Below, piece by piece: positions 28,163-44,895 of a DNA stretch of 64,000 nucleotides (within the stretch, counting starts at the first letter, position 1; each line of letters starts with the position of its first letter). The notes beneath the pieces are model-generated. The model ran no database searches. It was given only the letters and a program-made list of their open reading frames with translations, and was not told the DNA's origin. This stretch comes from a candidate division CPR3 bacterium GWF2_35_18. GTDB taxonomy: Bacteria; Patescibacteriota; CPR3; GWF2-35-18. Location of the stretch: assembly GCA_001771135.1 (NCBI GenBank), contig MESW01000003.1:8719-72718 (forward strand), written 5' to 3'. Made by a program: the position numbers and the translations under genes.

Positions 28163-28174
28163 GGATACCTCCTA

Positions 28175-29987: not shown

Positions 29988-30002
29988 TTTTAAAAAGAGA
30001 CG

Positions 30003-30061
30003 GAGGCAGAAAGCTAAAAACACGATAATAAAAATATTTGTGTTTTGGAAGCTTTCTGCCT
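30003..30061 (-). terminator. Compound long hairpin (13-bp outer stem GAGGCAGAAAGCT/AGCTTTCTGCCTC, inner AAAACAC/GTGTTTT) followed by T-run on minus strand
   Basis: Inverted repeats read directly; T5 follows on minus strand about 85 nt after stop of 30149..30433; T-rich tract also follows on plus strand (bidirectional). Confidence 0.6.
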
Positions 30062-30148
30062 CAGATTGTCTCTCTCTTTTCTTTTTCCAGCATAAGCTGG
30101 AGATGATTGCTTCAGAAGGAGTGCGATGCACCCCTCCTGAAATAGATT

Positions 30149-30433: not shown

Positions 30434-30507
30434 ACCCGTTCTCCTTTCGAAAAGATTTTGTGCTGCAATGTGAGCTCTTTGTTATACGGGTGATGATGTA
30501 GAAGTGA

Positions 30508-30849: not shown

Positions 30850-32105
30850 GGCTGTACCTGTCTTACTCGAAGACCAGTGTCCCGATCCCACAGATTGGGC
30901 GGATTGTGAACAATCTGCCAGAGATCAACCATATTAGCTCCTGCGAGAACTTGAGCTTTTAGTGCATCTGCTGATATTTTTTCCAGTGAAGCAGCACGAG
31001 CGATGAATTCATCAAACAGGGTGGATACGTCTTCTTCTCTACTTGCTTCAGCACCCCAGCCTTGTTCTTCAGTGATTCGGGTGACATCATAGATGATTCG
31101 GTTAAGTGAATAAGCCATGCCGGCCTTTTCATCTTTGACATCCTGGGTGAGTTTTGCCAGTTGACGAATGATTTGCAGCAGCAAATTAGCCTGGTAGACA
31201 AAGTCCTTTCGGTCAAAACCACCGTATTCCTTGACCGGGAAAAACATCTGCCCAATGCCCAATCCGCTCCAGTTTAGGAGGAACCCATCCCAATACCTTT
31301 CCAATCCTGTACCAGGAGTCTTCCCACCAGGTTCGCCAGGAGATGAAATCTTAGTCTGACCGAAATCAGTCGGGCTAGCGATAGAGATGAACAGCATCCC
31401 TTCGGGCGCGGTGACTTTGACAAAGATGATCTGTTTGCGATACCAGATCATGACGTCATGGGTGCGATTCCACTCGCCGATGAAAAAGGCCTTGACGACC
31501 GGAAATAGGCACCACAACAGTGAGATAGCCATTCCAGCCAGGATACCCAGAAGCAATGGTTGCCAGACGACATTGATGTAACCAGATAGCAACCATTCTG
31601 TTAAGGTTCCATTCATCAGAGCATTGTAGGCAGGGAGCAAGGTTAGTCCCACTGCGACTATTAAGCCTCCGGTGAAGCCCAGAAAAAGAACCCAATACGC
31701 CTGACGGAGACCTTTACCGATGGCTTTGAACATGTCTTCGATGACGATAGTAATGTCTTCGAATATGACGATCTGGCATCTATCATCTTTCTCGAACCAC
31801 CACTGGATAGGGTTTTCGTACATGGTGTCCATCCAGCGGAATACCGGACTGAAGATCGCGACCGTGAAGACATAGAAACGGCGGATGGCCATGAATGATG
31901 TTCGGACGACCTCCTTCAAAAAATTGACCAACCGAGTTGGACCAATGAAGAACAGGATCAACATTGGTGATGAGATGATGAGAAGGGCCAAAAGCCCCCA
32001 TAATAACCAACCTTTGGTTGTAAAAACCAGAAGAGTGGCGCCGGCGAGGAGATAGAGAATCCAGGCGGCTAGGATAGATCGGAAATCAAGTTTGAAAATA
32101 CTCAT
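30846..32105 (-). CDS. Island polytopic membrane protein with cytoplasmic C-terminal domain (start at MSIFKLDF)
   Basis: ~419 aa; GAAAGGAGACCCC RBS before MSIFK; N-terminal half with several TM helices. Confidence 0.55.
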   Translation of the reverse strand: MSIFKLDFRSILAAWILYLLAGATLLVFTTKGWLLWGLLALLIISSPMLILFFIGPTRLVNFLKEVVRTSFMAIRRFYVFTVAIFSPVFRWMDTMYENPIQWWFEKDDRCQIVIFEDITIVIEDMFKAIGKGLRQAYWVLFLGFTGGLIVAVGLTLLPAYNALMNGTLTEWLLSGYINVVWQPLLLGILAGMAISLLWCLFPVVKAFFIGEWNRTHDVMIWYRKQIIFVKVTAPEGMLFISIASPTDFGQTKISSPGEPGGKTPGTGLERYWDGFLLNWSGLGIGQMFFPVKEYGGFDRKDFVYQANLLLQIIRQLAKLTQDVKDEKAGMAYSLNRIIYDVTRITEEQGWGAEASREEDVSTLFDEFIARAASLEKISADALKAQVLAGANMVDLWQIVHNPPNLWDRDTGLRVRQVQP

Positions 32106-32418
32106 GGGGTCTCCTTTCAACAAGATACTCCTTTCGAAATTGGTGGAGAGGGCCATTTGGCGCACTCCATGGAAAAACAACCCGCATTTTACGGGGACCA
32201 AACAGAATTAAGCTGCACATCGTGCAGGTTAAAAAAGAAATATTTAGTTTTAATGTACTTATAATTTTCTCTTCTAATTTCTAGAATTAAAGATTATTAA
32301 TCCCAGGAATCAGAAGAGAGGGTGGGTGACGATACAGTAATGTATGTCATGAAGGCAGCCACCCTCGTCTCTCTCCTGATGTTTGTATCACCGCGCGTAA
32401 GCAGGGTGAAGATTGATG

Positions 32419-32787
32419 TTACTTGATTTCTTGGACTTCGGCTTCCACGACTTCTTCTTCATAGCCAAGAGGCTCAGAATCAGATTGTTGGACACCGATG
32501 TCGGCGCGAGCTAAATCCAGAAACCATTGGGATCCAAAATACAAGACGATCACGTCGTCAAAGGGTCCAAAGAAGATATCCACTGGTACGATCACGTAAA
32601 GAATCGTGCCTATGAAGATCAGTTTGTGCCGAAAGAGCACCTTGGGGTGACGAAAGAGCATCCAGACCTCTTTCGCATTGGCGACAATGTCGGCAATAAG
32701 ATCCTTACGATTCTGTTCAGGCAGGCGACGGAGTCGCGCTCGTCCGGACGGAGAAGGTTGTGGATTTGCAGGAGGTGTTTTCTTCAT
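32419..32787 (-). CDS. DUF1232 (YkvA-like) small membrane protein
   Basis: 122 aa; YVIVPVDIFFGPFDDVIVL resembles DUF1232 signature (…SPIDLIPDFIP..G.LDD…). Confidence 0.5.
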   Translation of the reverse strand: MKKTPPANPQPSPSGRARLRRLPEQNRKDLIADIVANAKEVWMLFRHPKVLFRHKLIFIGTILYVIVPVDIFFGPFDDVIVLYFGSQWFLDLARADIGVQQSDSEPLGYEEEVVEAEVQEIK

Positions 32788-33545
32788 GGTTGTACCGTGA
32801 CCAATTCCGTGCGGATGTAGCAGGTCTGCCCTTCGGCGGTCGTAATCTGGTAAAGAGCATTGGAGCCATTCCAGGAGACCGGGGCGGTTGCTTCTCCGAT
32901 TATGATGATCACATCGCCAGTTGAAAGCTTGATGATCGAGGTCTGCCAGGTGCTTTCGTTCAAATCAGTATGGCAGTTGACGCCGTCATCATCCTGGAAG
33001 GTCACAGTGCCTTGGCGGTTCGCCGGAGTTGCAGTTGGAGCAGGTGTTGGAGTGTTTTGCGGAACTGCAGTTGCCTGGTTCATCACAACCTGGGTCGGAT
33101 TGGCAGTTGGTATAGTCGGACGGTCAATGCTCAGAATCAGTTCAATCCGGATGTAGCAGATTTGGCCGGTTTGATTAACCTTGACCCTGTACAGGTTGTT
33201 GGAGCTATTCTGCCAGGAAACAGGGGCTGTTCCGAATCCAATTACTTCGAGTTCTGTCCCATTTGGCAGAGAGATGATCTGGCTGGGTGTTGACCAAGTT
33301 GCTTCATCAGTGTTCAAATGGCATTGAACAGATCCAGAGCCATCGGTGGCGGCGACTTTTAGCCATTTCGCGGTGTTCCAGGGAGTAACCGTAGCCGCAA
33401 CGCGAACCGGGTCGATACTTCCGCCTAAAGTAATGGTCCTGCATAAACCGCAAAAACAAGCAACACAGATTATGGGAATGAGCAGGATCCAAAGCCAGGG
33501 GCGGCGTTTGCGATTTTGAGCGATTGAGGAAGTTGAAGTTGTCAT
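32784..33545 (-). CDS. Membrane-anchored protein with two tandem ~65-aa Cys-containing beta-rich repeats (SH3b-like?)
   Basis: 253 aa; N-terminal TM; repeats GSVQCHLN…APVSWQNS…CYIRIEL and GVNCHTDL…APVSWNGS…CYIRTEL separated by Pro/Thr linker. Confidence 0.55.
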   Translation of the reverse strand: MTTSTSSIAQNRKRRPWLWILLIPIICVACFCGLCRTITLGGSIDPVRVAATVTPWNTAKWLKVAATDGSGSVQCHLNTDEATWSTPSQIISLPNGTELEVIGFGTAPVSWQNSSNNLYRVKVNQTGQICYIRIELILSIDRPTIPTANPTQVVMNQATAVPQNTPTPAPTATPANRQGTVTFQDDDGVNCHTDLNESTWQTSIIKLSTGDVIIIIGEATAPVSWNGSNALYQITTAEGQTCYIRTELVTVQP

Positions 33546-33554
33546 AGCAATCTC

Positions 33555-34052
33555 CTATTGCTGAATATTTTGCACTTGCACAAGCTCCTGCCGGAGGTAG
33601 CAAGTTTGATTTTGGCCATCAAGTCTGACGAGGTATACATCTTTTGATCCATTCCAGATAGTGGGTGCAATATCTTCACCCAAAATCGTTACCGTCGTTC
33701 CAACATTCAACCTGACGATTGTGTTCGGATCAGTCCAGGTTTCATATGCCAGAGTGAGGTGGCATTGTACCGATCCGGAAGGATCATTGTAGGTGATGGT
33801 TCCCACAGTAATTACTACTGGGGTTGTGGTATCAGGAATAGCTGGAGTGACATTTTCTCCTTTTGATACCATTGGTAGAAAAACATAATTATAGTTGCCC
33901 AGACGCGCCGGGATAAAATCACCGTAGTACTCCGAGGTATCTGGGTTTACGTTTTGAGGTGTCGAAGACAGCGCCTGTAAACCAATCCAGGCAACGAACA
34001 CCAACAAAATGCCGATGATAAGATGCGGAATTCCAATTCTTGAAATCTTCAT
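33555..34052 (-). CDS. Membrane-anchored protein with one copy of the same SH3b-like repeat (paralogue of 32784..33545)
   Basis: 165 aa; N-terminal TM; SVQCHLTL…APTIWNGS…CYLRQEL. Confidence 0.55.
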   Translation of the reverse strand: MKISRIGIPHLIIGILLVFVAWIGLQALSSTPQNVNPDTSEYYGDFIPARLGNYNYVFLPMVSKGENVTPAIPDTTTPVVITVGTITYNDPSGSVQCHLTLAYETWTDPNTIVRLNVGTTVTILGEDIAPTIWNGSKDVYLVRLDGQNQTCYLRQELVQVQNIQQ

Positions 34053-34212
34053 GCCTTTAACCTCCGATAGAGCCTCCTGATTGGATGATGCTGGGGGGAA
34101 TTTTTCCGCCCAGTTTGATTTAAAGACCGATTTTGGTCTTTAACGATAACAAGAATAAAAAAAGGGATAATAGCAAATCCGTCAGCATAAGCTGGCGGAT
34201 TAATAGGTTGGA

Positions 34213-36204
34213 TCAGGAAGATCCGTTTGATCCGTACAGCTTGGAAGGCGAAGTTTTACCATCCTTGAGTTGATCATATGCAGATTCAGGAGTGATTCCA
34301 GCTTCAACTAACTTTTCCGCGACTTTACGGGTGAAGCTTTTTCCGCCTTCGGTAACCAGGCGCTCCGAAACTGCGAGCATAGCTACGACAGGATTATCAG
34401 TAGCAACTTGAACTAGCTCTGACGGCTCAATGCTCATCATTCTCAACGCCTTAAGCATCGTTGGAATAACATCATCTTTACCCTGTAGTGCTTGGGCCGC
34501 TTGAAGAAGTTGATCTACCGGCGAGATGGTTCCCACTCTTTGCTGGATTAAAACGAAAGCTCGTTGACGTGAGTCTGGTTGTAAAGAAGCAAAAAGCTGC
34601 TCCAGAACTTGTTCAGGAACTGGGATTCCGGCCGTGCGCCACATAGCGAAGGTTGCCGCAGCTTTGTTAGGAACCGAACGTAGTTTCGCACCGGCTTCGG
34701 TAGCGATGAGACGATAGGCTTCTTCAACTTCACGATGAGCCCATTCTTCATCCTCGACTTTCCAGGCCGTTCTGATGGCTCCTTCTTCAAAAGGAATCGT
34801 GAGCAAAAACTGACGCAGATAAGCGAGGATTGCTTTGTGGGCATCAAATCCCTTTTCGCCGGCAGCAGCACGTTCCATTCTAACCGCAAAGTCAGTATGA
34901 ATTTGCAGTCGATCAGGAGATAGCATATCTTCTAACTCGCGAGTACCGGTTTCGGTCATGTCAATCCACGGACGCGGGGTGGTCGGATTCTTCTCCGTGT
35001 AATGCATGATCAGAGAAGTTGCAGTTGGTTTCCCGATTTCATGGGCCACAGTGCCCGATGAAGTTTTCTCACCTTCGTAAAGGCTTGTTACAATCGGTGT
35101 CAAGGAACCACCTCCTGGCACTGAGCCGAAGAAGAGATAGTTATTGACAACCCAACTCAAAGCACCGGTCGGAATACCTGATCCTGCGAAGCCCTCACCG
35201 GCGATAGATTTGATTTGTCCCAATCCTTTAACAAGGCCAATGGCCGAGTCCAGGAAATAGAACACATCATAGCCTTCCGTAACGAAAGTCTGGGCGACCG
35301 ATCTTGACAGTTCAGCGTTGAGAAGAATTGTAGCTGGTGTTGCTCCAGTGAAGAAGAACGTATTAAGATGTGGATATTTAGCCAAACCAGCCGCCATTTT
35401 CCGGGCATCCCCTACTCTTTCACCAACGCTTAGGCAAATGATCACCGTGTTGTCTTTTTTGAGACCCAGTTCTTGATCGGTACAAGCCAAGACAGCATCG
35501 AGATAGGCACGCGCCGTCCAGGTTTTACCTGATTTCGATGGACCAAGGATTAGGCTGAGAGCACCGATACCGAAAGGCGCTTTGGCGCGGAGAATCTTCA
35601 TGGTCACATTGCCATTGACTGTTGACTCAAGCTCTCTGACCGAGTGCGCCAGCTTGCGTTGGCCGACGAGATGCTTCATGAAACTGGGTCTCATAGTTTT
35701 CTGAACACGTCCATTAACTGCCAGGATGACAATCAGGTTTCCTTGCAAGGTATACTTCACGATGTCACCCATACGAATATCCCATGTTTCAAGGACTTTG
35801 GTATCTAATATAGGAACTCTTCGCATGAATTCTTTCTTGTCTTCAGTCGTGAGTAGAAGCTCGCCTGCAGGAACCAGAAGATACGTGTTTTTTTCTACGA
35901 AACAGAAACGTTCAACAGCCAAGATCCTACCAGAAGCTGGATCAATCCAGACTACTTCGTTGACACTGAGTCCCCAACGAGTAACTTCCGCGTCGGAGAG
36001 AGGAATTCCAGACTTCGCCGTTCGTTCTTTGAGAGCAAGAACTTCAGCTTTTTTTTGATCATCAGGCTTGTCGGAGATATGAATTTCGTCTTCCTGAATA
36101 AGATAATTTCCATTCATCTGCGGAGTGATAGCATAGAATGGATTTTGACGCGCATGGTAATTCGCGTCATGAATTGAAAAAACAAAACGTTTCTCCATTT
36201 TCAC
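34213..36204 (-). CDS. rho: Divergent Rho-family transcription termination factor/RecA-like hexameric ATPase with ~190-aa C-terminal extension
   Basis: 663 aa; OB/CSD-like segment (WDIRMGDIVKYTL…IVILAVNG cf. Rho FNLRTGDTIEGKI…LKVEAVNG); Walker A LILGPSKSGKT; FLDSAIGL; GGGSLTPIVTSL (cf. Rho EGGSLTIIATAL); PWIDMTETGTRELEDML (cf. PAIDYNRSGTRKEELL). Confidence 0.7.
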   Translation of the reverse strand: MKMEKRFVFSIHDANYHARQNPFYAITPQMNGNYLIQEDEIHISDKPDDQKKAEVLALKERTAKSGIPLSDAEVTRWGLSVNEVVWIDPASGRILAVERFCFVEKNTYLLVPAGELLLTTEDKKEFMRRVPILDTKVLETWDIRMGDIVKYTLQGNLIVILAVNGRVQKTMRPSFMKHLVGQRKLAHSVRELESTVNGNVTMKILRAKAPFGIGALSLILGPSKSGKTWTARAYLDAVLACTDQELGLKKDNTVIICLSVGERVGDARKMAAGLAKYPHLNTFFFTGATPATILLNAELSRSVAQTFVTEGYDVFYFLDSAIGLVKGLGQIKSIAGEGFAGSGIPTGALSWVVNNYLFFGSVPGGGSLTPIVTSLYEGEKTSSGTVAHEIGKPTATSLIMHYTEKNPTTPRPWIDMTETGTRELEDMLSPDRLQIHTDFAVRMERAAAGEKGFDAHKAILAYLRQFLLTIPFEEGAIRTAWKVEDEEWAHREVEEAYRLIATEAGAKLRSVPNKAAATFAMWRTAGIPVPEQVLEQLFASLQPDSRQRAFVLIQQRVGTISPVDQLLQAAQALQGKDDVIPTMLKALRMMSIEPSELVQVATDNPVVAMLAVSERLVTEGGKSFTRKVAEKLVEAGITPESAYDQLKDGKTSPSKLYGSNGSS

Positions 36205-36535
36205 CTTTCCTTTCTTGAAAAAATCCGCAACCGCTTCGGAGTAAAGGGATTGCTTCTGAAATACAAATTAACCCGATTAACCGGGATAATTAACAAAGTA
36301 TTGTTCTTTCAAATTTAAATTTGAAAAGAAGATTTTCTAAGCAATAACTTAGAAAGATTCATTTTTTAGGTGCAAAAGAGTTTTTTAAAAGTATTTTTTA
36401 GATAACTCTTTGTTTACGCTCAGAGATTGAAGCTGAAAGCAAACAAAGTATTATCTAAGTTATAAAGTGAGAGAGGATAGTCCTAAATGAGAGGTTTCAA
36501 GGCGGATGCCAAGAAAAATTCATAAAGGACTATCC

Positions 36536-37969
36536 TTATGGTGTAGTCTCGTTGTTCTCCTCTCCCACTGTTTGAAAGGTGATCATGTTCGGATTATCCG
36601 ATACAGTCACCCATTGACCAATTATAGTGTAGTTCGTTGTGTTTTTGATAATCAAATCCATACCGCCACTAGCTCCAGCATGAGATTCACCACCGGTGCA
36701 GTTAATTGCCACCGTAAAAAATGATGAGCCACCGCTATGAGCTGGTGAGTTCAGGATTTGAAGACCTGGAGTATGTTGTGCCCAGGAATCAATGAAAGTG
36801 GCGTTGGCACAAAGTCCACCGGCGTTGATACCTGCCGCGTAAACATAACCTGACCAACCCGTCTCATTGACAGAAGCGCAAAAACTCCATTGTTGGCCAG
36901 CGGCGATTCGAACGGTTGAAACGTTATGAGTGTAAATCATGAAGTTTCCCGACTGACCATCGTGCGGAATGTTTCCAGATCGAATATCCACACTGATGAT
37001 TTCGCCCGAAGCGGTGCCAGTTGATGGCAGAGAGGATCTCTGCGTATCCAAACTTCGATAGAGATCATTGGGCAGAAGCCCAAAGAAGTTCATAACTGAC
37101 GCAAAAGTGCGTAGAGTATCACCGTCGAGATTGGTATCTCCAAAGGTGAGACCGGATACAATGCGTGAGTTATAAACCTCAGACAGATTGACCATCGCAT
37201 CAACATCGGCGATAAGTTGAACTCGATAGCTTTCGCTTTGATTCCAACCTCGCAGTTCTTGAATGCGTTGTTCAACAGAATGGTCTGACCGGTAACCGAT
37301 AGCGTAAACATACCAGGCTGTAGCATGCCAGCGAACGCGATCATTCCAGAAGTTACAGGTCATGAGAACCGGATCACCGGAGGGAATAAGGCCTTTTTCG
37401 CAGACTAGCTTTGCGGTTGAGGCGATAAATCCACCCGGAAGTTCACCAGTCGAAGCATGTCCTGTATAACCTGTATAACCATCGTAGATGTGACCATCGG
37501 TCACATTGTTTTCTTTCCAATGGTTAAGAAGCCAGGTTTGGGCTGCAACTTCCACGGCACAGTTAACATTCGGGTTTGAGCATGCCGCAGTTTTTGCGTC
37601 GTAAGCGGCAGAACGACCCTCATGTTGATCAAGTATAATGTACACACCTGGATCTCCAGCAGATGCTTCAATAGTGTTACTAATCCAGAGACTAGCTTCG
37701 ATGGAACCAGCGACATCCACAGGGTTTAAACCTTGAGCCGTTAATTGCTCTTCTTGAGCCTCCGTGAGGACAGGGTATCCGGACATGTCAATGTCCAGTA
37801 GCTCAGATACCGCTGTATCCCAAGTCCGGGGGATCATGGACTGCACTTGCCAAGCCGCCACTAGGGCAGCAAAGAAAATACAGCCCATGATTATCACCCC
37901 GCAGACCAGGAAAAAGGCAAAACGGCCTAGACGTTTTTCGAAGAACTTTCTCGACCGTTTTTTGCTCAT
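36536..37969 (-). CDS. Secreted/membrane-anchored protein of unknown function, immediately downstream of VirB4-like gene
   Basis: ~478 aa from MSKKRSRKFF (AGGGAGG RBS); N-terminal TM/signal; many Cys, Gly/Ser/Thr-rich. Confidence 0.55.
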   Translation of the reverse strand: MSKKRSRKFFEKRLGRFAFFLVCGVIIMGCIFFAALVAAWQVQSMIPRTWDTAVSELLDIDMSGYPVLTEAQEEQLTAQGLNPVDVAGSIEASLWISNTIEASAGDPGVYIILDQHEGRSAAYDAKTAACSNPNVNCAVEVAAQTWLLNHWKENNVTDGHIYDGYTGYTGHASTGELPGGFIASTAKLVCEKGLIPSGDPVLMTCNFWNDRVRWHATAWYVYAIGYRSDHSVEQRIQELRGWNQSESYRVQLIADVDAMVNLSEVYNSRIVSGLTFGDTNLDGDTLRTFASVMNFFGLLPNDLYRSLDTQRSSLPSTGTASGEIISVDIRSGNIPHDGQSGNFMIYTHNVSTVRIAAGQQWSFCASVNETGWSGYVYAAGINAGGLCANATFIDSWAQHTPGLQILNSPAHSGGSSFFTVAINCTGGESHAGASGGMDLIIKNTTNYTIIGQWVTVSDNPNMITFQTVGEENNETTP

Positions 37970-37983
37970 GTAGGCCTCCCTTG

Positions 37984-40329
37984 TTAGTTTGGCACACCGA
38001 GCAAGTCCAACAGACTGCGTTCGAGATGAGGATTGAACCAACCGCGCCATCCTGGAGGTGGACCCATTCTTTTCTTTGCTTCTTCAGGACCTTCTACCCC
38101 ATCCAACTGTTGTTCCATTGATTCATAACCAGAAGGGGGTTTTACTTCCCAAAGATTTGAGAGGGTTACATTTGGAGGGTAAAACACTTCGGCCAGCCGG
38201 TGCTTGCGATTCGGTTCATTACTGAAGACTAAGGCAACAGGGAAATCGTTTAAGATTGCCTGACCAAAGTTCTCCACGATGCTGGCGAAGCTGTGGAATA
38301 TACCGAAGAAACCGGTATTGTACTTCCGACAGGTGTTCATCACGATACTGAAGGATCGGCGAAAGTTTTTTGTTACCACTGGAGCTTGATCTCCAATGAC
38401 GGAATCTCGCTCAGCTTCTGACGCCGCAACCATATCGTCCACGATGACAACCATCTCTTCACCTAAATCGCAGGCCAGCTTTCCGACTGCTGGAATCGTG
38501 ATTTCCTGAATTAGTCTCAGGTATTCCAGATAGACAAACTGATTTCCCGATTCTCTGCGAATCACCCAAGGAAAGCCTAAAATCCGACCATTCTTTTTGA
38601 TTTGCTGCACCAATATTTCGGTGCTGGCCATAACTTCTTTCCGAAGCTGAACTGCCATTTGATTGAACTGCTCAGGGCTTTCGGGATTACCGAAGGTGTA
38701 GATCGGTGCTTGGCCTCCAAGCTTAATCGCCAACTCGCTGGTCCACGGTTCTTGGGTATCTGAAACATGCAGAACGATAACGTTCCTCGTTCGCATGTAG
38801 GCTGATATGACTGCCATTACCGTTTTCCCCGAACCTGATGGGCCTAAGAATAACGCCGATGGGGTTTTGTCCCATGAGACGAGACGATGAGTTACCGGAT
38901 GACGACCGAGTGGCCAGGCTCCGCCAGAAACGCCCACAGCTTCGGTGCTGTCCGCAACGACCTTGAGCATTTCACTCCACTTCCGGACGGCGAAGCGTTT
39001 TGCTTGATAAGCAGTTACAGGAGTCGCCATTAGATTGAGGAACCAATCCCAGACCTTTCCCGTCATTCGGAAGAACCGATTGTTTGAGTATTGACGTTGA
39101 ATAGGAGTGGTTCCAATCTTCCAAGGCGATCCAGGAATCATACTATACAGTGTTCTGCGAAGATAATCCGGATCTTGGTTTTCGACACCCATCACGCGTT
39201 CGTGGCGAGAAGGCAGACTATTTTCTGTCTGAGTTAGATCTATTTCCGTACCTGCCGCCATGACCAAAACCGATGTCCAGATTTCCGGACTAGAGAGGTT
39301 CTCTTGCTCGATACAAACATGAACATCGAGAGAGAAAAGCACCTCCCATTCCTCTTTTGTCGCCGGATACACTCGCCAAAGGGCAACGTGTTTGTCGCCA
39401 TGAGTATAATCGGCTTCATGAAAACGAAGATCTGGCAAAGCTCCGAGAATTGGCTTTGGCATGGGATTGTCACCATGGGTTGTTGACCCTGAAGTGAGGA
39501 ATGCATATGCCAGATTTGCCCATTGTGATGGGTTTAAAGGTGTAGCTCCCGCTAATGCGGTAGTCGCCATTTTGGGATTGAAACAGTGATTAGCCAGTCC
39601 GGTCATGACAAGCATTCGTCCACGATCATTTGCACCAGCCGCATAATACCGTTCTAGCTCCTGGTGAAGATTTACCCAGAGAGCATTTCCTGGCATCTGC
39701 CGTGTGGCGGTTGTGATTAACTGATGAAACGCTCTATTGTCGTGTGGAACACTCATTGAAATCATTTTCCACCACATTGGATTGACTCCGCGACCAGATG
39801 GATCGAGTAAATGGTCAGCAAGCATCGGTGGCGTTTGATGAACACCAACGACCATTGATCGACCATCATTTACCGAATTTGAATCAATCGGTATCAGAAT
39901 GGCAACAGGACCATTAACACCTACCGGAGTATAAGACTGCACTTTAAAGCCATAAAGCGCTTCCGCTTCAGCCACAAGATCTTCAATGGGCATTGGCGCG
40001 AACGGCATGCTAGCGTGTAGAATTTGGGTCAAAGCCGGGTGGCCGCGACCTTTGATCGTTATTGTGGCTGGAACTGGTCCTTGCGCAGTAACGTGGCGTT
40101 TTCCTTCTCGACCTGGAATTTGAGATTTACCGATGGTTTGGCCAATCACAACAGTTTCCAGACCTAAACGTAGAGAAGCTTTGAAGAAAGGAGTGTCGCT
40201 TTTGATAGTAAGCAATCCAGCTTGACGAAGTTCAAAATGATTATATCCGTTCGGACTCATTACCCGAACATCTGCCAACACCGATGGTGGTGGCAATTGA
40301 AAGAGGGAGGGTAAGTTTGTATTTTTCAT
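37984..40329 (-). CDS. VirB4/TraC/TrbE-family conjugation/secretion ATPase-like protein
   Basis: 781 aa; Walker A LFLGPSGSGKT in C-terminal half; Walker B MVVIVDDMVAASEAE; RKYNTGFFGIFHS resembles VirB4 motif (…RKfN…ATQS); size as VirB4. Confidence 0.65.
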   Translation of the reverse strand: MKNTNLPSLFQLPPPSVLADVRVMSPNGYNHFELRQAGLLTIKSDTPFFKASLRLGLETVVIGQTIGKSQIPGREGKRHVTAQGPVPATITIKGRGHPALTQILHASMPFAPMPIEDLVAEAEALYGFKVQSYTPVGVNGPVAILIPIDSNSVNDGRSMVVGVHQTPPMLADHLLDPSGRGVNPMWWKMISMSVPHDNRAFHQLITTATRQMPGNALWVNLHQELERYYAAGANDRGRMLVMTGLANHCFNPKMATTALAGATPLNPSQWANLAYAFLTSGSTTHGDNPMPKPILGALPDLRFHEADYTHGDKHVALWRVYPATKEEWEVLFSLDVHVCIEQENLSSPEIWTSVLVMAAGTEIDLTQTENSLPSRHERVMGVENQDPDYLRRTLYSMIPGSPWKIGTTPIQRQYSNNRFFRMTGKVWDWFLNLMATPVTAYQAKRFAVRKWSEMLKVVADSTEAVGVSGGAWPLGRHPVTHRLVSWDKTPSALFLGPSGSGKTVMAVISAYMRTRNVIVLHVSDTQEPWTSELAIKLGGQAPIYTFGNPESPEQFNQMAVQLRKEVMASTEILVQQIKKNGRILGFPWVIRRESGNQFVYLEYLRLIQEITIPAVGKLACDLGEEMVVIVDDMVAASEAERDSVIGDQAPVVTKNFRRSFSIVMNTCRKYNTGFFGIFHSFASIVENFGQAILNDFPVALVFSNEPNRKHRLAEVFYPPNVTLSNLWEVKPPSGYESMEQQLDGVEGPEEAKKRMGPPPGWRGWFNPHLERSLLDLLGVPN

Positions 40330-40520
40330 GCCTTTCTCCTTGCGGAATGGGACCGGGGGCGGAACAGCGCCCGGCTATTACAAAACTCGCTTTTGTAAGC
40401 GAGATAACCAACATATTTATTTTTATTTGCTTTTTTAAATGTGCCTGTCTCTTCCTCCTTTTAGACTCTTTGATTAATAAGAATTATTTCCAGAATACAA
40501 AGAATCAAAAGGAGAGAGAG

Positions 40521-40567
40521 GAATGATCCGTACAACGAGTGTTGTGCGTCCGTTATACGGATCATTC
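40521..40567. repeat. 12-bp-arm perfect palindrome GAATGATCCGTA-N23-TACGGATCATTC
   Basis: Inverted repeat read directly; lies between VirB3-like and VirB4-like genes; loop carries smaller hairpins. Confidence 0.8.
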
Positions 40568-40596
40568 TTTATTGTAGTCTCGTTGTTCCTCTCTTT

Positions 40597-40857
40597 CTAC
40601 TGAGGTTTAGGGTTTTCGAGTTTGTGCTTCACGGAGAAGCGAATAAAGGCGATCAGTCGCCAGCATCCAACTCCGATCAGATACAAGCCGAAGATACCCA
40701 TTTCGATGAGAATCAACTGAATCAAGCCGATCCGGAAGATCATGGGTCCAATGATCCAGCTGAAAACGATAACAAAAGCCAGGGTGATGATGACCAGGAT
40801 GGTCAACACCGTGGGCTTCTCACCTTGATTTGTAAGGAGATACATCAGTTTTTTCAT
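40597..40857 (-). CDS. VirB3-like small 2-TM membrane protein
   Basis: 86 aa, two hydrophobic helices; directly upstream of VirB4-like gene; ATGA overlap with the VirB6-like upstream gene. Confidence 0.5.
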   Translation of the reverse strand: MKKLMYLLTNQGEKPTVLTILVIITLAFVIVFSWIIGPMIFRIGLIQLILIEMGIFGLYLIGVGCWRLIAFIRFSVKHKLENPKPQ

Positions 40858-42344
40858 GATTCTTCTCCTGAAGTGTGTGTCTCTACATAATGAACAACAG
40901 CTTCTTCGGCAATAGAACCAGCAATCGGAGCAGCTTCTGGTGCACCCAAAGCAGTTGCGGCGGTAGCTCCAGCTATATATCCGATTTCTCCAAGGAGTTC
41001 TCCATTTACGTTTCGTTGCTCGACTTTCGTAGGAACGCCGTTGACCGATACATCGTCACCAGAAATTTCCGGATAAACCTGGCTTCCAGCTCGCGCATAA
41101 ACAGTGCCATCAGGACCAACAATATCCTCTGAAGCAAAGTAACGCTCTTCAGGTGCTGGAGTATTTTCCGGTAGGACGTTTGGATCAGCGTTAGGAAGAG
41201 TTTCTTTTCCAGTTTGAGAGTCATCACCGTCTGTAGGAATTCCAGTCGTTGGAGCAGGAGTGATGATGGGTTTACCATCGCTACCGTCGTTTACCGGTCG
41301 GAATTCTCCTTCGACGATCTCTGACTCAGAGGTGCTTGGAGATGGAGTCTTTCCATTACCGCCATGACCACCATTACCACCGCCATTGGTTTGACCAGTT
41401 GGAAGCTGACGCTGACCTGGCTTAGGCGCTGGGGCGTTGGGATTACTGACTTTGATATCAGGATCTTTATCCTTATGACGGGATAAAATCCATGTCTGGA
41501 AACCTTCCCAAAGCGTTTCCGCTTTGTCGTCCCACCAGCTATGGTCATGTCCATCTTCATCTTCGGGCAGCATGGATTTGATGACCGTGAGTCCGGCGAT
41601 GATCGGGAAGATCAGTAAAGCTCCCATAAGGAAGGCATAAGTGGAACCTGGCTGGTTCATGTTTGCAGCAAGCAACTGCATCATGAGACCCCAACTCAAG
41701 TCCATAAGAAGAAAGAGACCAAAGGCAGTAAACCAAGCCATGATTGGTTTCAGGCTTTTACGGAAAATCGCCATTGGGATGAGGATAATCGGCGCAATTG
41801 CGAGGAGGATCTCGTACGCCAGATGGCCTGCGAGATAGCCGTACGTTAGTGGAATGCCCACGAACGACATGAAGTCGACGCTCGTGTTGAGGCTGAGCCA
41901 GTCAACCGTGAATCCCATTGCCCTCCGGGCAAGATCAGGGCCGATGCCGAATACTTGCCATAGCAATTTGCCGATTTCATCCGCCATGGTATAGGTGACA
42001 AATGGTGCCGGTAGGACAAACATCATCTCTAGCCAAAACCAGTGCCGTTTAGCAATCGCTTCGGGAACATTTTCCCTTTTTACCGCCGACACAATTACAT
42101 TCAGGCAGAAAATCAGGAATAGTCCTAGACCAATTGCAAGCATTCCCCATACCAAGACAGGATTGGAGTCAAAGATTTGCTGGATACTACTGACATTGAT
42201 CCAAGCTTTGTTCTCAAAATCAATGACTCCATTGACGAATGTTTCGACTTGATCAATTAATTCGCCGGCAGCGCTGCACCCGGTCAACAGAGTTGACAGG
42301 AGCACGACGCCGGACAGGCGCAGCACGAGTTTAGTTTTTTTCAT
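40854..42344 (-). CDS. VirB6/TrbL-like polytopic membrane lipoprotein with long disordered Pro/Gly/Asp-rich C-terminal tail
   Basis: 496 aa; lipobox LLTGCS; >=5 TM helices; C-terminal ~200 aa low complexity. Confidence 0.5.
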   Translation of the reverse strand: MKKTKLVLRLSGVVLLSTLLTGCSAAGELIDQVETFVNGVIDFENKAWINVSSIQQIFDSNPVLVWGMLAIGLGLFLIFCLNVIVSAVKRENVPEAIAKRHWFWLEMMFVLPAPFVTYTMADEIGKLLWQVFGIGPDLARRAMGFTVDWLSLNTSVDFMSFVGIPLTYGYLAGHLAYEILLAIAPIILIPMAIFRKSLKPIMAWFTAFGLFLLMDLSWGLMMQLLAANMNQPGSTYAFLMGALLIFPIIAGLTVIKSMLPEDEDGHDHSWWDDKAETLWEGFQTWILSRHKDKDPDIKVSNPNAPAPKPGQRQLPTGQTNGGGNGGHGGNGKTPSPSTSESEIVEGEFRPVNDGSDGKPIITPAPTTGIPTDGDDSQTGKETLPNADPNVLPENTPAPEERYFASEDIVGPDGTVYARAGSQVYPEISGDDVSVNGVPTKVEQRNVNGELLGEIGYIAGATAATALGAPEAAPIAGSIAEEAVVHYVETHTSGEES

Positions 42345-42361
42345 AGTCGTGCTCCTTAGCG

Positions 42362-42700
42362 TTACTGGTTGAGGTTGATGCCGTTGCTGGCGAGACTGAT
42401 CAACCAGTTAATCAAGGCGATAGCTGCGTTGATAATCGTCATGATGAGGCCGGCTCCGTTGACCGCCAGATTGATGAGGTCGGTGAGCATGAAGATGCCG
42501 AAACCGATCCAGCCAATAGTTACAGCCACGTTTTTGAGGTGGCTATTGGCTCCGGACTTGATTTTGTCATCTGACGACATCTTGGCCTGGATGGTGTACC
42601 AGAGGGCTGCAACTAAGCAGATAAGTGCCGTAAGAACGCCCAAGATGGCACCACCATAGAGCATTGCCTGAAATGCAGCAGGTGCTGTATTGATAGTCAT
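42362..42700 (-). CDS. VirB2/TrbC pilin-like small 2-TM protein
   Basis: 112 aa; hydrophobic-hydrophilic-hydrophobic layout typical of T4SS pilin-like subunits; first gene of module. Confidence 0.45.
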   Translation of the reverse strand: MTINTAPAAFQAMLYGGAILGVLTALICLVAALWYTIQAKMSSDDKIKSGANSHLKNVAVTIGWIGFGIFMLTDLINLAVNGAGLIMTIINAAIALINWLISLASNGINLNQ

Positions 42701-43211
42701 AGCGGAATTCTCCTTTCGAGATAGTCTTGAACATAGTTTTTAGTTGATCTTACTTGATATCAGGACAAACTTAATCTTAGATTTGGTTCGGATGCCTCCT
42801 TAATCTGAATAGGCGGAGGGGCTTTTTGGCGCCTCCATAGTTTTATCGGCCTATGGCCGGATTGAACGAGTTAGGTTTGAAATGTGCTATTTAATTTATT
42901 AATTCCCCTAAATCTAATTTTTTAAAAATGATAAAAAATTAATTTCAGATAATTAATTACGCGAAAAAACGGCACTTTAGGTGTCGTTTCTCTCGATTAA
43001 TATTAAATTTTATCTCTCTCAAAAAGGGGTAAATAATAGTAAAGTTGTTGGGGATTAACGTTTACTATTAAAATTTTCTATTACTTTCTGCTTTAAGCAA
43101 ACAAATGACTTTGTTTTCTTAAGGTAAAAAGAGTGTCTTGGGTGGTAAAAAAGATATAGATGAAGCGAATAATTGCTAGATGTATATGTTTTTTCAAGAC
43201 ACTTCCTGAAA

Positions 43212-43257
43212 GGGAGTCGCCTGACGGCGGACTTCAAGCCAAGCGGCTCCCTTTTTT
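43212..43257 (+). terminator. Orphan plus-strand intrinsic terminator (GC-rich hairpin + T6) in island intergenic region
   Basis: AGGGAGTCGCC…GGCGGA…GCGGCTCCC hairpin followed by TTTTTT; no plus-strand CDS upstream. Confidence 0.45.
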
Positions 43258-43389
43258 GGAATTGTGTGGAGCGCGCAGGCGGATGGCAGTTAGCCTATGA
43301 AATTTGGATCAAGGGTACGAATACCCAAGACCTCAGGTATGTTTGTTAAACATGTGGTTGAAGGTTTTTCTCCTTGAACGAAAAGTGAA

Positions 43390-44142
43390 TCAGACGGCGA
43401 CAGGGGTCGGCGCAGGGAAGATCTGCCGGAAATCGGCAATCATTTCGGCCGTCATGTTGATGCCAGCGAGATGTTCATCGGTCATCGTGATGATCTCTTC
43501 CAGCGTGCGGCCGGTTGCGTCCAGGTGGACACCGGTGCCATTGCTGAAGAACAGGCTGGGCTTCAGGTCGGTCATCGCGTAAAAGTTCTCGCTGAGCTTG
43601 ATCAGATCAGCCTTAGCATCTTTGGCCATCTGGGCGACAGCTTTCGGACTGTAGAATCCCCGCTCGGGATTCTCCTGATTCCGATATTGCGCACGGTGGG
43701 CCTTGAGGACCCGACCGAAGGTGGCTGACAGACTCATGGAGCGATCGCGGAAATCTGGGTCAACGAACCGAACCAGTGCCTTGAAGATGGGATTCGCCAT
43801 CAGGACGCCCAGTTCCTTCTGGCCGGCTTCCGCCTGATCGAGAGCCCAATTCCACTGACAATCGCTGAACATGTTCCAGAGACGTTGGACATTGTTGCAG
43901 AAGATGCGGACTTCATCGGCGACCACGTCTAGGAATGCTTCATCGGCGAATTTCAAAACGTCCTGGAGGCGGCGTTGCTCGCCATTGGCTTCGCCAAACT
44001 GTTCTTCGAAATCGGCGCTGAACAGGCCTGTCTGGTTTGGATCGGTAACGATGGCGCGGTGAATGCCGAACAAAGTGCGCATTTTGCCGGCGGCATTTTC
44101 AAAGTCTGAACGAACGGTCTTGAGGGTCAAATTTACAGACAT
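43390..44142 (-). CDS. Island hypothetical cytoplasmic protein
   Basis: 250 aa; AGGAG RBS; GC-rich codons; no recognised motif. Confidence 0.5.
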   Translation of the reverse strand: MSVNLTLKTVRSDFENAAGKMRTLFGIHRAIVTDPNQTGLFSADFEEQFGEANGEQRRLQDVLKFADEAFLDVVADEVRIFCNNVQRLWNMFSDCQWNWALDQAEAGQKELGVLMANPIFKALVRFVDPDFRDRSMSLSATFGRVLKAHRAQYRNQENPERGFYSPKAVAQMAKDAKADLIKLSENFYAMTDLKPSLFFSNGTGVHLDATGRTLEEIITMTDEHLAGINMTAEMIADFRQIFPAPTPVAV

Positions 44143-44895
44143 GAGTTTTTCTCCTAGAGGAAAATGAACGTGAATGGGTGAAATTTTGGAAGGTTAAACT
44201 GACAATTTTGATGCTCTACTAAACTGAAAGTGATTTTTCGATACAGCCTCCTTTGCTAATCGAAACGATTGTGATTTTCCACGTGCTTACGCAGGTGGAT
44301 TTAATAAAATTTCCTTTACCCTTTTGGGCTTGGGAGGGAAAAATACAAATTATTAGGTACTTCTCTATCGGTTAAAACCTCATCGAAGTATAATAACATT
44401 ATGTTCTTCGCTCCCATGCCCAAGGAATTATTTTCCCTGGAGGTCCTTATTACAAAGGGTTTATCTGCATGTCTATTGCTATTAATTTTTAAGTGCGATG
44501 TATTATAGATGTATACTTCAAAAAATAACTAAAAATTGCCCCACGGTTGACGTAGCTGCAAACATGAAATATACAATTTTGCTCTCTCCAACAAGGGCAA
44601 ATGGCAGTCTAAAATTTAAAAAAAGAAACCGCAAAAGAGTAAAATTAAGCGAAAAAAATATGGATTTATTGTCCATATTTTTTAATCTTTCCCAAATTAT
44701 TCTCTTTTAAGATTTCTTCAGCAAGTTTAAAAAGAGGTAAAAGGTTATAATTCTTATTTCTTCAGTCTTAATTGTAATTAACATTGACCTCTTCTTGGTA
44801 TAAGTTATTCTGCGATACTCTAACATACTACAGGTTATTTTGTCAAGAGAAAAAACAAGAAAAAGAGAATAAGCAAAAAAAGATATTTACATAAA

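Follow-up and report, generated by a model that had tools for sequence, protein, structure and literature searches.

Type IV secretion systems (T4SS) of the Patescibacteria clade derive from the MPF-FATA type, and clusters devoid of a relaxase and a T4CP are the norm in these organisms (Quinonero-Coronel et al. 2025, PMC12102498). Such canonical systems are essential for epibiotic growth and are thought to be non-conjugative; their VirB4 ATPases are found by the standard VirB4 HMM, lie for the most part on the chromosome and follow inheritance within classes, and in at least one strain a wall hydrolase or peptidase is encoded just 3' of virB4 (PMC12102498).

The Enterococcus plasmid pCF10, which carries a conjugative T4SS of the monoderm type, encodes in this order a polytopic membrane protein (PrgH), a small VirB3-like protein (PrgI), a VirB4 ATPase of 796 aa (PrgJ) and a cell-wall enzyme (PrgK). 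Further genes of this system code for adhesins, a relaxase, VirB8-like proteins and PcfC, a coupling protein of the VirD4 type. The ICEs of Mycoplasma, whose cells have no outer membrane, likewise encode a conjugative T4SS with a small pilin-like protein (Mbov_0395 family). In these elements homologs of TraE/VirB4 and TraG/VirD4 can be recognised, and they carry a DDE transposase as well. Finally, the archaeal Ced and Ted systems are chromosomal and UV-induced. They combine a VirB4-like ATPase with VirB6-like and small VirB2/3-like membrane proteins and possess neither relaxase nor T4CP (PMC9905601; bioRxiv 10.1101/2024.09.27.615246), Ced being composed of CedA, CedA1, CedA2 and CedB (bioRxiv 10.1101/2024.09.27.615246).

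Here we describe a gene module in a 64,000-nt stretch of DNA (the window) from a candidate division CPR3 bacterium. It resembles the Patescibacteria systems in its CPR-type host, in a VirB4-like ATPase at its centre, in candidate genes for a VirB2-like pilin, a VirB3-like and a VirB6-like protein, in a wall-enzyme-type gene just 3' of the ATPase gene and in having no detectable relaxase or nearby T4CP; the latter feature alone is not novel, being already the norm in that clade (PMC12102498). By contrast, the ATPase is invisible to the VirB4-type models of Pfam and NCBIfam, the module lies on compositionally foreign islands, and it includes a conserved Rho-derived ATPase, a partner not mentioned for the Patescibacteria T4SS in PMC12102498. 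The order of its polytopic lipoprotein (496 aa, in the PrgH position), 2-TM protein, ATPase and wall enzyme is that of PrgH-PrgI-PrgJ-PrgK, and the ATPases are of similar length (781 aa here) with the Walker A motif in the second half of both, but sequence similarity to the pCF10 system is insignificant. Moreover, the coupling protein, relaxase, adhesins and VirB8-like proteins of pCF10 were not detected here, while pCF10 has no Rho-like ATPase. Two pilin-like proteins of the module family match the Mycoplasma model below threshold; TraE/VirB4, TraG/VirD4 and a DDE transposase are, however, not recognisable.

An island of foreign composition

The module is part of a 19.2-kb segment (Table 1). 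GC profiles delimit a GC-rich island (~26.9-44.3 kb), which the segment holds alongside an AT-rich leader and three tRNA genes. The genes beside it were identified from Pfam as uvrA, uvrB, uvrC and a transglutaminase-like gene, and the uvrB-uvrA-transglutaminase-uvrC cluster, conserved elsewhere, is split by the segment. In the nearest genomes available for this comparison (L017, L021 and L022; UvrB 55-59% identical) uvrB adjoins uvrA, with a gap of 64-1270 bp that holds no tRNA gene, and in L017 and L022 the transglutaminase and uvrC genes likewise follow uvrA. The foreign composition noted in the original prediction is borne out, with a GC content of ~47% in the island vs ~33% in the host and a GC3 of 48% vs 28%. 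In the related loci L013-L015, one of which comes from a genome labelled WWE3, the GC content of the module likewise exceeds that of its flanks, by ~8-14 points; all four genomes with usable flanks thus carry a compositionally foreign module, each at a different locus. On our reading, the locus is an island of foreign composition gained by horizontal transfer. Its junction was recovered in independent assemblies at ≥99.8% identity, and every contig with this exact UvrB has the island, so that nothing points to ongoing excision. Profile and repeat searches revealed no integrase, replication protein or att repeats for the island, and no VirD4, relaxase or phage gene was found in the 19.2-kb segment with Pfam, NCBIfam and PHROGs, in line with the predicted absence of VirD4 and relaxase.

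The ends of the island are variable. Its first gene is also its GC-richest part (~57%), and the encoded 250-aa protein has no significant match in Pfam, PHROGs, NCBIfam, PADLOC or PDB and no homolog in the other loci compared. Homologs in these loci are likewise missing for the distal genes, whose sole family match is a weak cold-shock domain in the 235-aa protein and among which lie two copies of a 64-nt direct repeat (D1; 28646-28709 and 29924-29987). The tRNA trio, at the distal end and in the orientation of the module, is probably island cargo; three co-oriented tRNA genes also terminate the island of L015.

Table 1 Features of the inserted segment (positions in the window)
Feature	Position	Strand	Basis
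Inserted segment (19.2 kb)	25693..44895	.	between uvrA and uvrB
tRNA-Val(CAC), tRNA-Met(CAT), tRNA-Arg(TCG)	26373..26806	-	ARAGORN + Rfam
Variable distal genes, 127, 94, 235, 78, 159, 154 aa	27096..30891	-	ORFs
Second polytopic membrane protein, ~420-450 aa, start uncertain (family F)	30846..32201	-	~5 TM segments
Small DUF1232-type membrane protein, 122 aa (family G)	32419..32787	-	BLAST to L011 and L015 orthologs
Two membrane-anchored proteins, 165 and 253 aa (family E)	32784..34052	-	N-terminal TM segments
Rho-derived RecA/F1-type ATPase, 663 aa, putative second motor	34213..36204	-	NCBIfam, PDB, residue alignment
N-terminally anchored wall-enzyme-type protein, 477 aa	36536..37969	-	VanW-like C-terminal domain, VirB1/PrgK position
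VirB4-like ATPase, 781 aa	37984..40329	-	N-terminal VirB4-type domain + C-terminal FtsK/HerA-superfamily P-loop domain
Structured AT-rich spacer, 267 nt	40330..40596	-	between VirB3-like and VirB4-like genes
Small 2-TM protein, 86 aa, VirB3/PrgI-like candidate	40597..40857	-	two TM segments
Polytopic lipoprotein, 496 aa, VirB6-like candidate	40854..42344	-	lipobox, TM segments
Pilin-like small membrane protein, 112 aa, VirB2/TrbC-type candidate	42362..42700	-	hydropathy, position
First island gene, 250 aa, no assigned function	43390..44142	-	ORF

Extent and components of the module

The five minus-strand ORFs of the original prediction (112, 496, 86, 781 and 504 aa) all exist, but the minimal five-gene core envisaged there proved too small: the cluster continues downstream past 36536 to ~30846 and its conserved core comprises ~9 genes, among them a second, Rho-derived ATPase and no fewer than three additional conserved membrane proteins. 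The core begins with the pilin-like protein, polytopic lipoprotein, 2-TM protein, VirB4-like ATPase and wall-enzyme-type protein, followed by the Rho-derived ATPase and three more membrane-protein families (E, G and F). Since this order recurs in at least six other loci (L008 and L011-L015), with proteins only 20-34% identical, the arrangement is not due to chance.

The TM topologies expected of pilin-like, VirB6-like and VirB3-like neighbours were recovered by hydropathy, in the gene order of monoderm T4SSs. In the 112-aa protein, hydropathy and alignment point to two to three hydrophobic helices; it also has a basic loop and a Gly that is invariant, and its gene holds the same place in the relatives. 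It matches the NCBIfam model 'Mbov_0395 family pilin-like conjugal transfer protein' (NF045849; E 1.5e-4), as does its L008 ortholog (26% identical; E 2.5e-6), both matches (21 and 27 bits) lying below the curated cut-off of 40. The 496-aa protein possesses a lipobox (LLTGC) and at least four TM segments, and ends in a long tail of low complexity. The lipobox Cys is present in six of six orthologs (clustered as family C and including those of L008 and L012), with 4-6 TM segments within the first ~270 residues; no VirB6/TrbL HMM matches this protein or any ortholog. Its gene overlaps that of the 86-aa protein by ATGA, as predicted. At the position of the latter, five relatives likewise encode a 2-TM protein of 65-146 aa, and no VirB3 or PrgI HMM matches the 86-aa protein. 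Topology, position and one sub-threshold family match thus mark the three proteins as candidate VirB2-, VirB6- and VirB3-like components.

The 86-aa gene had been placed directly upstream of the ATPase gene; the two are in fact separated by a 267-nt spacer, which contains tandem long hairpins (including I7) and a terminator-like hairpin at 40403-40386. Its minimum free energy is -86.9 kcal/mol vs -54.9 in shuffled sequences (z -6.3), and the equivalent spacers of nine relatives fold with z of -3.7 to -8.4.

On the other side of the ATPase gene, the predicted 504-aa exported protein (36536..38050) stands as an ORF, though a shorter, membrane-anchored product is more likely. An ATG at 37969, preceded 6 nt upstream by a GGGAGG ribosome-binding site, is most likely the true start, with which the gene callers concur, and yields a 477-aa protein that does not overlap the ATPase gene. 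Hydropathy indicates a single N-terminal TM segment and suggests a membrane-anchored protein, a cleaved signal peptide also being compatible with it. The match to VanW has an E of 7e-4 in this protein and is of full strength, in the precomputed Pfam annotation, in its L011 ortholog. The L013 protein can be aligned with the N-terminal part of the 477-aa protein and the L014 protein with the C-terminal part, and both of these orthologs carry Peptidase_M23. It is therefore assigned to the VirB1 position, and the earlier statement that VirB1 is absent is misleading.

Among the downstream membrane proteins, those of family E share a repeated domain of ~90 aa: one and the same domain in L011, L012 and L015 proteins is matched by the 165-aa protein and by each half of the 253-aa protein, while Pfam, PHROGs and NCBIfam give no family name. 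The L011 and L015 orthologs of the 122-aa protein carry DUF1232 (PF06803). Orthologs of family F were found directly in L011, L014 and L015 and by clustering in L013.

The VirB4-like ATPase

The 781-aa ATPase contains, as originally noted, the motifs GPSGSGKT (residues 496-503), VVIVDD (627-632) and RKYNTGFFGIFHS (668-680), and hydropathy reveals no TM segment. Its predicted fold is VirB4-like across both the N- and the C-terminal domain, the best match being a two-domain VirB4 and not the short A32/PRD1-type packaging ATPases, and TrwK is the only structure whose alignment extends across 486 residues or the entire length; this assignment rests on one predicted structure with an input alignment of 21 sequences. 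Furthermore, its RKY-x5-GI-x-H motif (RKYNTGFFGIFH) and RKYGAVTTGITQ in PrgJ, which is the pCF10 VirB4, can be aligned without gaps, so that both share RKY-x5-GI-x-[QH]. Fold, TrwK match and motif all speak for the VirB4-like nature proposed earlier. By contrast, the expected VirB4-family HMM match did not materialise in Pfam (E ≤ 1) or NCBIfam (E ≤ 0.1). The sole T4SS-related profile match is a sub-threshold one to a VirD4-type family at the Walker A region; the profile of the ATPase family matches EccC and FtsK around Walker A, and its hhalign comparison with PrgJ is insignificant (probability 4%). Only ~21 clusters of this family occur among 1.84 billion proteins. Indeed, no component of the module reaches the curated threshold of a T4SS family in sequence profiles, and the 781-aa motor is recognisable as VirB4 only by its predicted structure.

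The Rho-derived ATPase

Rho is both the best family match and the best PDB match of the 663-aa protein. NCBIfam Rho models match it with E of 7e-11 to 7e-9, far under their cut-offs (equivalog scores of 42 bits vs 628 and 35.5 vs 509), and residues 87-465 match M. tuberculosis Rho (7oqh; E 5e-10), with a partial match to the N-terminal OB region. Alignment of its family with two genuine Rho proteins reveals as invariant the Lys of Walker A, the Asp of Walker B (D319), the E262-R263 pair and the arginine-finger position (R422). The R-loop lysine of Rho, however, is seemingly not conserved in our reading of the alignment, and translocation of nucleic acid by this protein is consequently not assured. 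It also differs from Rho by an extra C-terminal extension of ~200 aa and by the fixed position of its gene inside a membrane-apparatus operon, orthologs being present in all five loci that reach far enough downstream. On these criteria (score, extension, R-loop and operon) it is distinct from the housekeeping Rho of the host, and it is somewhat more probable than otherwise that it acts as a functional second motor of the apparatus.

Possible functions of the apparatus

That the apparatus is T4SS-like we regard as very probable. Our best explanation for the whole, to which we give an even chance, is a horizontally acquired island whose conserved core specifies a T4SS-like envelope translocon, VirB4-based, of monoderm type and very divergent, perhaps serving transfer of the element. 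The 2-TM protein and the polytopic lipoprotein would make up a membrane channel with a hexamer of the VirB4-like protein docked on them, and this hexamer would extract the pilin-like subunit, while the anchored VanW-like protein (M23 elsewhere) may open the peptidoglycan. The Rho-derived ring ATPase could stand in for the missing VirD4-type coupling protein and feed a substrate into the channel, most likely a nucleic acid, because it stems from a single-strand nucleic-acid translocase. Islands at different chromosomal sites in various CPR lineages have the core as their principal conserved content; the function that this makes most likely would be conjugation-like cell-to-cell transfer of the element itself, via unrecognised DNA-processing and integration functions. 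That the substrate is nucleic acid or the system conjugation-like is nevertheless a tentative part of this explanation, somewhat short of an even chance. The original preference for secretion or cell contact over conjugation does not follow from the data, since a module on acquired islands fits self-transfer at least equally well.

Alternatively, the apparatus might secrete proteins or contact host cells in an epibiotic lifestyle, the Rho/F1-like ATPase being a FliI/SctN-like unfoldase or only a regulator. This is unlikely, though with real points in its favour: canonical Patescibacteria T4SSs without relaxase or nearby T4CP are essential for just such growth (PMC12102498), F1/FliI-type protein-export ATPases (FliI, SctN, ATP-synt_ab) are weak relatives of the Rho-like protein too, the island is fixed in the population without empty sites, and no DNA-processing genes were detected at the module. 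A core lifestyle organelle would, however, not be expected to have foreign composition at different loci in four of four genomes, the closest sequence relative of the second ATPase is a nucleic-acid motor, and no candidate effectors were identified.

A translocon for element transfer also has to be weighed against a DNA-import machine analogous to Ced/Ted, which we consider improbable. The likeness is one of description: the core composition agrees with that given for Ced and Ted (10.1101/2024.09.27.615246; PMC9905601), relaxase and T4CP are absent in both, and the insertion lies inside a uvr repair cluster, which may be coincidence. Yet the Rho-like ATPase, the wall enzyme and families E, G and F have no counterpart described for Ced, and carriage on an island would be left unexplained. 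Patescibacteria, moreover, use ComEC and type IV pili for DNA uptake.

An integrated virus or virus-like element, for example a membrane-enveloped, capsid-less one whose FtsK/HerA-superfamily ATPase packages or exports the genome and whose membrane proteins are virion or egress parts, would account for the tRNA gene cargo, for codon usage unlike that of the host, for the near-total orphan status of the island genes and for the strong structural match of the 781-aa ATPase to Gp155 of Bacillus phage G (E 2.5e-11). It is nonetheless highly improbable: PHROGs gave no capsid, portal, terminase, tail or integrase match, tblastn found no match in 50,697 phage records, an IMG/VR scan yielded no relatives, and the best match to the ATPase fold is a two-domain VirB4. 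Finally, a generic FtsK/HerA-family ATPase (defence, segregation, repair) placed among membrane proteins by chance, with a VirB4-like N-domain that is a modelling artefact, is barely plausible given the unique extent of the TrwK alignment, the lack of a PADLOC match, the motif shared with PrgJ, and the conserved pCF10-like order of the neighbouring genes (pilin-like, polytopic, 2-TM, wall-enzyme), which is otherwise hard to account for.

Sequence and predicted structure of the ATPase

VirB4 is treated as a universal, HMM-detectable hallmark of type IV secretion systems (T4SS). The 781-aa ATPase, which the original prediction had likened to VirB4, is not recognised in this manner: none of the VirB4 profiles (CagE_TrbE_VirB, AAA_10 and related models in Pfam; VirB4/TraC in NCBIfam) matched it at E ≤ 1 (Pfam) or E ≤ 0.1 (NCBIfam), and the HMM check proposed for its VirB4 membership came out negative. 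Likewise, 0 of the 21 members of its family match a VirB4-type profile at E ≤ 0.01, and no T4SS family of Pfam is matched by any of its 20 relatives. PDB searches with the ATPase (phmmer) and with the family profile returned no VirB4 chain, and alignment of that profile with PrgJ, the VirB4 of the Enterococcus plasmid pCF10, was insignificant (hhalign, probability 4%). Scans with NCBIfam, PHROGs and PADLOC gave nothing relevant, and the sole T4SS-related signal in Pfam is a sub-threshold match around Walker A to the VirD4-type T4SS-DNA_transf (E 0.003). The 21-sequence profile does match EccC and FtsK in the PDB in the region of Walker A, and the family can accordingly be assigned to the FtsK/HerA superfamily.

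The family is rare. An exhaustive phmmer search of 1.84 billion cluster representatives yielded the 20 relatives, at 20-34% identity, while a word-indexed search of 5.8 billion proteins, with the single ATPase or the 21-sequence profile as query, recovered the query alone. Among 72,556 plasmids and 50,697 phages, tblastn with the ATPase as query gave no match, and a scan of IMG/VR with the family alignments found no relatives.

The discriminating evidence comes from the predicted structure. A single-sequence AlphaFold model was unusable (pLDDT 37), whereas an AlphaFold2 model built on the 21-sequence alignment is confident (pLDDT 83.7, pTM 0.75). Its best Foldseek matches in the PDB are three chains of TrwK, the VirB4 of the R388 T4SS (E 1.8e-11 to 2e-10, alignments spanning 710-843 columns), the protein with which a comparison had been proposed, followed by the C-terminal domain of a Thermoanaerobacter VirB4 (9.5e-5) and by TcpA (1.5e-4). 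In view of this ranking it is the VirB4-type N-terminal domain that discriminates; in the model it precedes a C-terminal RecA-fold domain of FtsK/HerA type, and TM segments number zero. On the strength of this one structure, predicted from a shallow alignment, we regard the 781-aa ATPase as probably VirB4-like in fold.

The sequence motifs fit such a fold. Walker A, Walker B and the RKYNTGFFGIFHS motif are all present as originally described, and the likeness of the last to the VirB4 RK box holds against a bona fide monoderm VirB4, since RKYGAVTTGITQ at position 699 of PrgJ aligns gap-free with RKYNTGFFGIFH of the ATPase. G501, K502, D631 and R668 are invariant in the seven closest family members; across the whole family, G501, K502 and R668 are invariant (21/21) and D631 is kept in at least 90%. 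Two deviations occur, namely a His in place of the final Gln of the RK motif and a Walker B ending in DD, not DE.

Outside the PDB, the BFVD model G3MBM1 (Gp155 of the jumbo phage Bacillus phage G, 549 aa) resembles the ATPase model almost to the same degree as TrwK (Foldseek E 2.5e-11, 658 columns), which hints that Gp155 may be a VirB4-like protein in a phage.

Gene order and neighbouring proteins

All five minus-strand ORFs of the original prediction are found where it had placed them, and the 496-aa and 86-aa genes do overlap by ATGA. The 86-aa gene, however, does not lie directly upstream of the ATPase gene, as a 267-nt spacer intervenes, and the last gene, although present, is shorter than the 504 aa assigned to it: its likeliest start, the ATG at 37969 behind the ribosome binding site GGGAGG, gives 477 aa. 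Gene order is the same in the contigs of six relatives (L008 and L011-L015), and BLAST and clustering among the loci define a conserved core (see table). The distal genes (27.1-30.9 kb) and the 250-aa first gene have no homologs in the other loci (phmmer).

Features of the module, the island and their surroundings (window coordinates; motif positions are residues of the 781-aa ATPase)
Feature	Position	Strand	Place in core (family)	Remark
Pilin-like protein, 112 aa	42362-42700	minus	1 (H)	
Polytopic lipoprotein, 496 aa	40854-42344	minus	2 (C)	
Small 2-TM protein, 86 aa	40597-40857	minus	3	
Spacer	40330-40596	minus		upstream of VirB4-like gene
VirB4-like ATPase, 781 aa	37984-40329	minus	4 (A)	
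GPSGSGKT	residue 496			Walker A
VVIVDD	residue 627			Walker B
RKYNTGFFGIFH	residue 668			C-terminal RK...(T)Q motif
Anchored wall-enzyme-type protein, 477 aa	36536-37969	minus	5 (B)	
Rho-like ATPase, 663 aa	34213-36204	minus	6 (D)	
Repeat-domain membrane proteins			7 (E)	
DUF1232 protein			8 (G)	
Second polytopic protein			9 (F)	
Insertion between uvrA and uvrB	25693-44895			
GC-rich segment	~26.9-44.3 kb			
tRNA-Val(CAC), tRNA-Met(CAT), tRNA-Arg(TCG)	26373-26806	minus		distal end of insert, co-oriented with module
uvrB-uvrA-transglutaminase-like-uvrC genes	19288-25692, 44896-46992			split between uvrB and uvrA
Direct repeat, 64 nt	28646-28709, 29924-29987			88% identical
Inverted repeat	30003-30062			28-nt arms
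Small ORF, ~65 codons	25940-26135	minus		between uvrA and tRNA trio
Ends of seven metagenome contigs	43641, 43683, 43712 (two), 43806, 43950, 44119			within or near 250-aa gene

The order lipoprotein, 2-TM protein, ATPase, wall-enzyme-type protein equals that of PrgH-PrgI-PrgJ-PrgK in pCF10. At the PrgH position, family C displays a lipobox cysteine followed by 4-6 predicted TM segments in 6/6 orthologs, none of which matches a VirB6/TrbL-type profile of Pfam or NCBIfam. The gene at the VirB3/PrgI position has kept its 2-TM topology and its place in six loci; the orthologs are barely alignable, and no VirB3 or PrgI profile matches the 86-aa protein or any of them. The 112-aa protein, with two hydrophobic helices and a short basic loop, fits a VirB2/TrbC-type pilin in topology. 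It matches NF045849 (Mbov_0395, pilin-like conjugal transfer protein) at E 1.5e-4, as does its 26% identical ortholog in L008 at E 2.5e-6, both under the 40-bit cut-off, and Pfam TrbC/VirB2 does not match it. Since no ortholog matches a VirB2, VirB3 or VirB6 profile, these three assignments are topological and positional.

The 477-aa protein carries a sub-threshold VanW-like domain (Pfam), for which its ortholog in L011 has a full-strength precomputed match, and Peptidase_M23 is found in the orthologs of L013 and L014; family B corresponds to the wall-hydrolase position after virB4. No SLT or CHAP domain was found in the 477-aa protein, which does not qualify as a VirB1 lytic transglycosylase, CHAP or NlpC protein, and family B is a positional and functional analogue of the VirB1-type hydrolase, not a member of that family. 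Its single N-terminal TM segment suggests a membrane anchor. PDB sequence searches with the 250-, 235- and 477-aa proteins were uninformative.

A Rho-derived ATPase in the conserved core

The 663-aa protein lies outside the region covered by the original prediction, and it is present in every locus that reaches far enough downstream. Its best matches are to Rho (NCBIfam E 7e-11; Rho of M. tuberculosis, 7oqh, E 5e-10 over residues 87-465), with weaker ones to FliI, SctN and F1 ATPases. At 42 bits (NF041509, cut-off 628) and 35.5 bits (TIGR00767, cut-off 509), its scores are far below those of a Rho equivalog, neither Rho_N nor Rho_RNA_bind was matched in Pfam, and a C-terminal extension of ~200 aa has been added. 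An alignment that includes two true Rho proteins shows invariance of the Walker A Lys, the Glu-Arg pair, the Walker B Asp and the arginine-finger position; the R-loop lysine is apparently not kept. As catalytic residues are retained despite scores below the cut-offs, we regard the 663-aa protein as Rho-derived rather than Rho.

A word-indexed search with this protein recovered just the two true Rho proteins and an 80%-identical variant (P0026) on a 2.4-kb Logan contig from another sample, the existence of which indicates that a second, moderately diverged copy of this type of island is present in the environment.

Composition and insertion site of the island

The window derives from the candidate division CPR3 bacterium GWF2_35_18, the source recorded for a protein identical to the ATPase. 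The foreign composition attributed to the region is borne out by both GC content and GC3, which are raised over the host: GC rises from ~33% in the host to ~47% in the GC-rich segment, and GC3 from 28% in flanking host genes to 48%. The same holds for L013 (from a WWE3 bacterium), L014 and L015, the other genomes with enough flank: the module lies 8-14 GC points above its flanks, in a chromosomal context that differs in each. This offset recurs though the modules are mutually just 20-30% identical, and it does not merely reflect amino-acid composition, since in the window it also affects synonymous sites.

The insertion site was compared in the nearest genomes available, obtained by a UvrB search of genome contigs, whose UvrB is 55-59% identical to that of the window. 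In all three (L017, from Blackburnbacteria; L022, from Daviesbacteria; and L021) uvrB lies next to uvrA at a distance of 64-1270 bp, with zero tRNA genes between them, and in L017 and L022 a transglutaminase-like gene and uvrC follow uvrA. The same gene order is split in the window by 19.2 kb. The island is horizontally acquired, and the module is located on this foreign segment. The three tRNAs were all that Rfam, scanned by E-value, detected in the island. The distantly related island of L015 likewise ends in three co-oriented tRNAs (Val-TAC, Trp, Glu; 19899-20326 in that locus). GTG and CGG codons are commoner in the island than in host genes, and the island tRNAs may be element cargo that offsets codon usage.

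Nothing in this population points to present-day mobility of the island. Independent assemblies from NCBI, JGI, ENA and Logan reproduce the uvrB junction with ≥99.8% identity, and an exact UvrB sequence look-up returned no island-free variant of the site, all population contigs carrying the island. Seven independent metagenome contigs, otherwise ≥99.8% identical, end within or near the 250-aa gene (~57% GC); these ends, at 43640-44120, could stem from micro-variation between strains or from a shift in coverage at the edge of the island.

Between the island borders no direct or inverted repeats of at least 13 nt were detected, and a search for att-type repeats found one 12-mer, which we take as a chance match in AT-rich sequence. 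The absence of a VirD4-type protein and a relaxase, as originally claimed, agrees with the island scans. Apart from the sub-threshold match of the ATPase itself, no island protein resembles a type IV coupling protein (T4SS-DNA_transf, TraG-D_C, TcpA), and a Pfam scan of the sixteen island ORFs of at least 86 aa revealed no domain of a relaxase, integrase or other recombinase, nor did the PHROGs, NCBIfam and PADLOC scans. The combination expected of an integrative and conjugative element (relaxase and oriT, integrase or transposase, att repeats) was not recovered from the island, although its orphan genes could conceivably include novel enzymes.

Possible function and significance

Clusters that encode a T4SS but neither a relaxase nor, close by, a coupling protein have already been described as the usual form in Patescibacteria, where they are thought to have been repurposed (PMC12102498), so that the headline feature of the original prediction is not new. 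The novelty lies in a rare lineage of VirB4 fold that escaped the sequence profiles used here, in its constant association with a Rho-derived ATPase, and in its location on GC-rich islands, which bear tRNAs in at least two cases. Surveys of T4SS in Patescibacteria depend on HMM detection of VirB4 (PMC12102498) and may undercount such systems, as the tested Pfam and NCBIfam profiles miss both this motor and its operon.

The VirB4-fold ATPase sits in an operon that resembles a monoderm T4SS, together with a conserved Rho-derived ATPase whose catalytic set is intact. In the mechanism that we envisage, the membrane components and a VirB4-like hexamer would make up the channel and deal with the pilin-like subunit, remodelling of the wall would fall to the VanW/M23 protein, and the Rho-derived ring would stand in for the coupling protein. 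The constant occurrence of a Rho-derived ATPase in the coupling protein's expected place suggests, as a hypothesis, that a T4SS channel can also be fed by a ring translocase of another type.

Transfer of nucleic acid, most simply of the element itself, is the function that we tentatively favour, because the second motor is derived from a translocase of single-stranded nucleic acid and because it is mainly this apparatus that is conserved among the laterally moving islands. The main rival is a role in secreting proteins or in contact with the host, which has been proposed for the canonical T4SS of Patescibacteria and which we consider less likely here. DNA import of the Ced-like kind ranks after it, as do a virus-like element and an apparatus that is not a T4SS. 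A prophage is down-weighted by the lack of capsid, portal, terminase and tail matches in PHROGs, the phage-record tblastn and the IMG/VR scan being empty as well, and a role in defence is rejected since PADLOC returned nothing.

To our knowledge, next to nothing has been described of mobile elements in CPR bacteria, and GC-rich, tRNA-bearing islands made mainly of a transfer-like apparatus are a concrete candidate. More speculatively, and with a low likelihood in our estimation, they could form an unrecognised class of CPR/Patescibacteria mobile elements that combine a T4SS-like channel with a Rho-derived ring motor in place of VirD4 and a relaxase, and with their own tRNAs to offset GC-richer codons. 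If true, this would be a new solution to conjugative transfer between ultra-small cells, possibly of ssDNA or even RNA.

Intergenic elements

Compared with the genes, the spacer that precedes the VirB4-like gene is AT-richer, and it is strongly folded (z -6.3), with two tandem long hairpins, of which the first is followed by a U/pyrimidine-rich run; a terminator-like hairpin occurs in the window copy too. Equivalent spacers in nine relatives (L006-L009, L011-L015) have z values of -3.7 to -8.4, calculated from mononucleotide shuffles, and no sequence conservation is obvious by eye. The spacer could be an intra-operon attenuator, an element of mRNA processing or stability, or a DNA cruciform such as an oriT-like site.

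A 64-nt direct repeat occurs in two AT-rich spacers among the variable distal genes and, together with the inverted repeat listed in the table, may represent common promoter or operator elements. Finally, a small ORF, hydrophobic by eye, is situated in a host-like AT-rich stretch, its ATG preceded by the purine-rich GAGAGGAGAAGAG.
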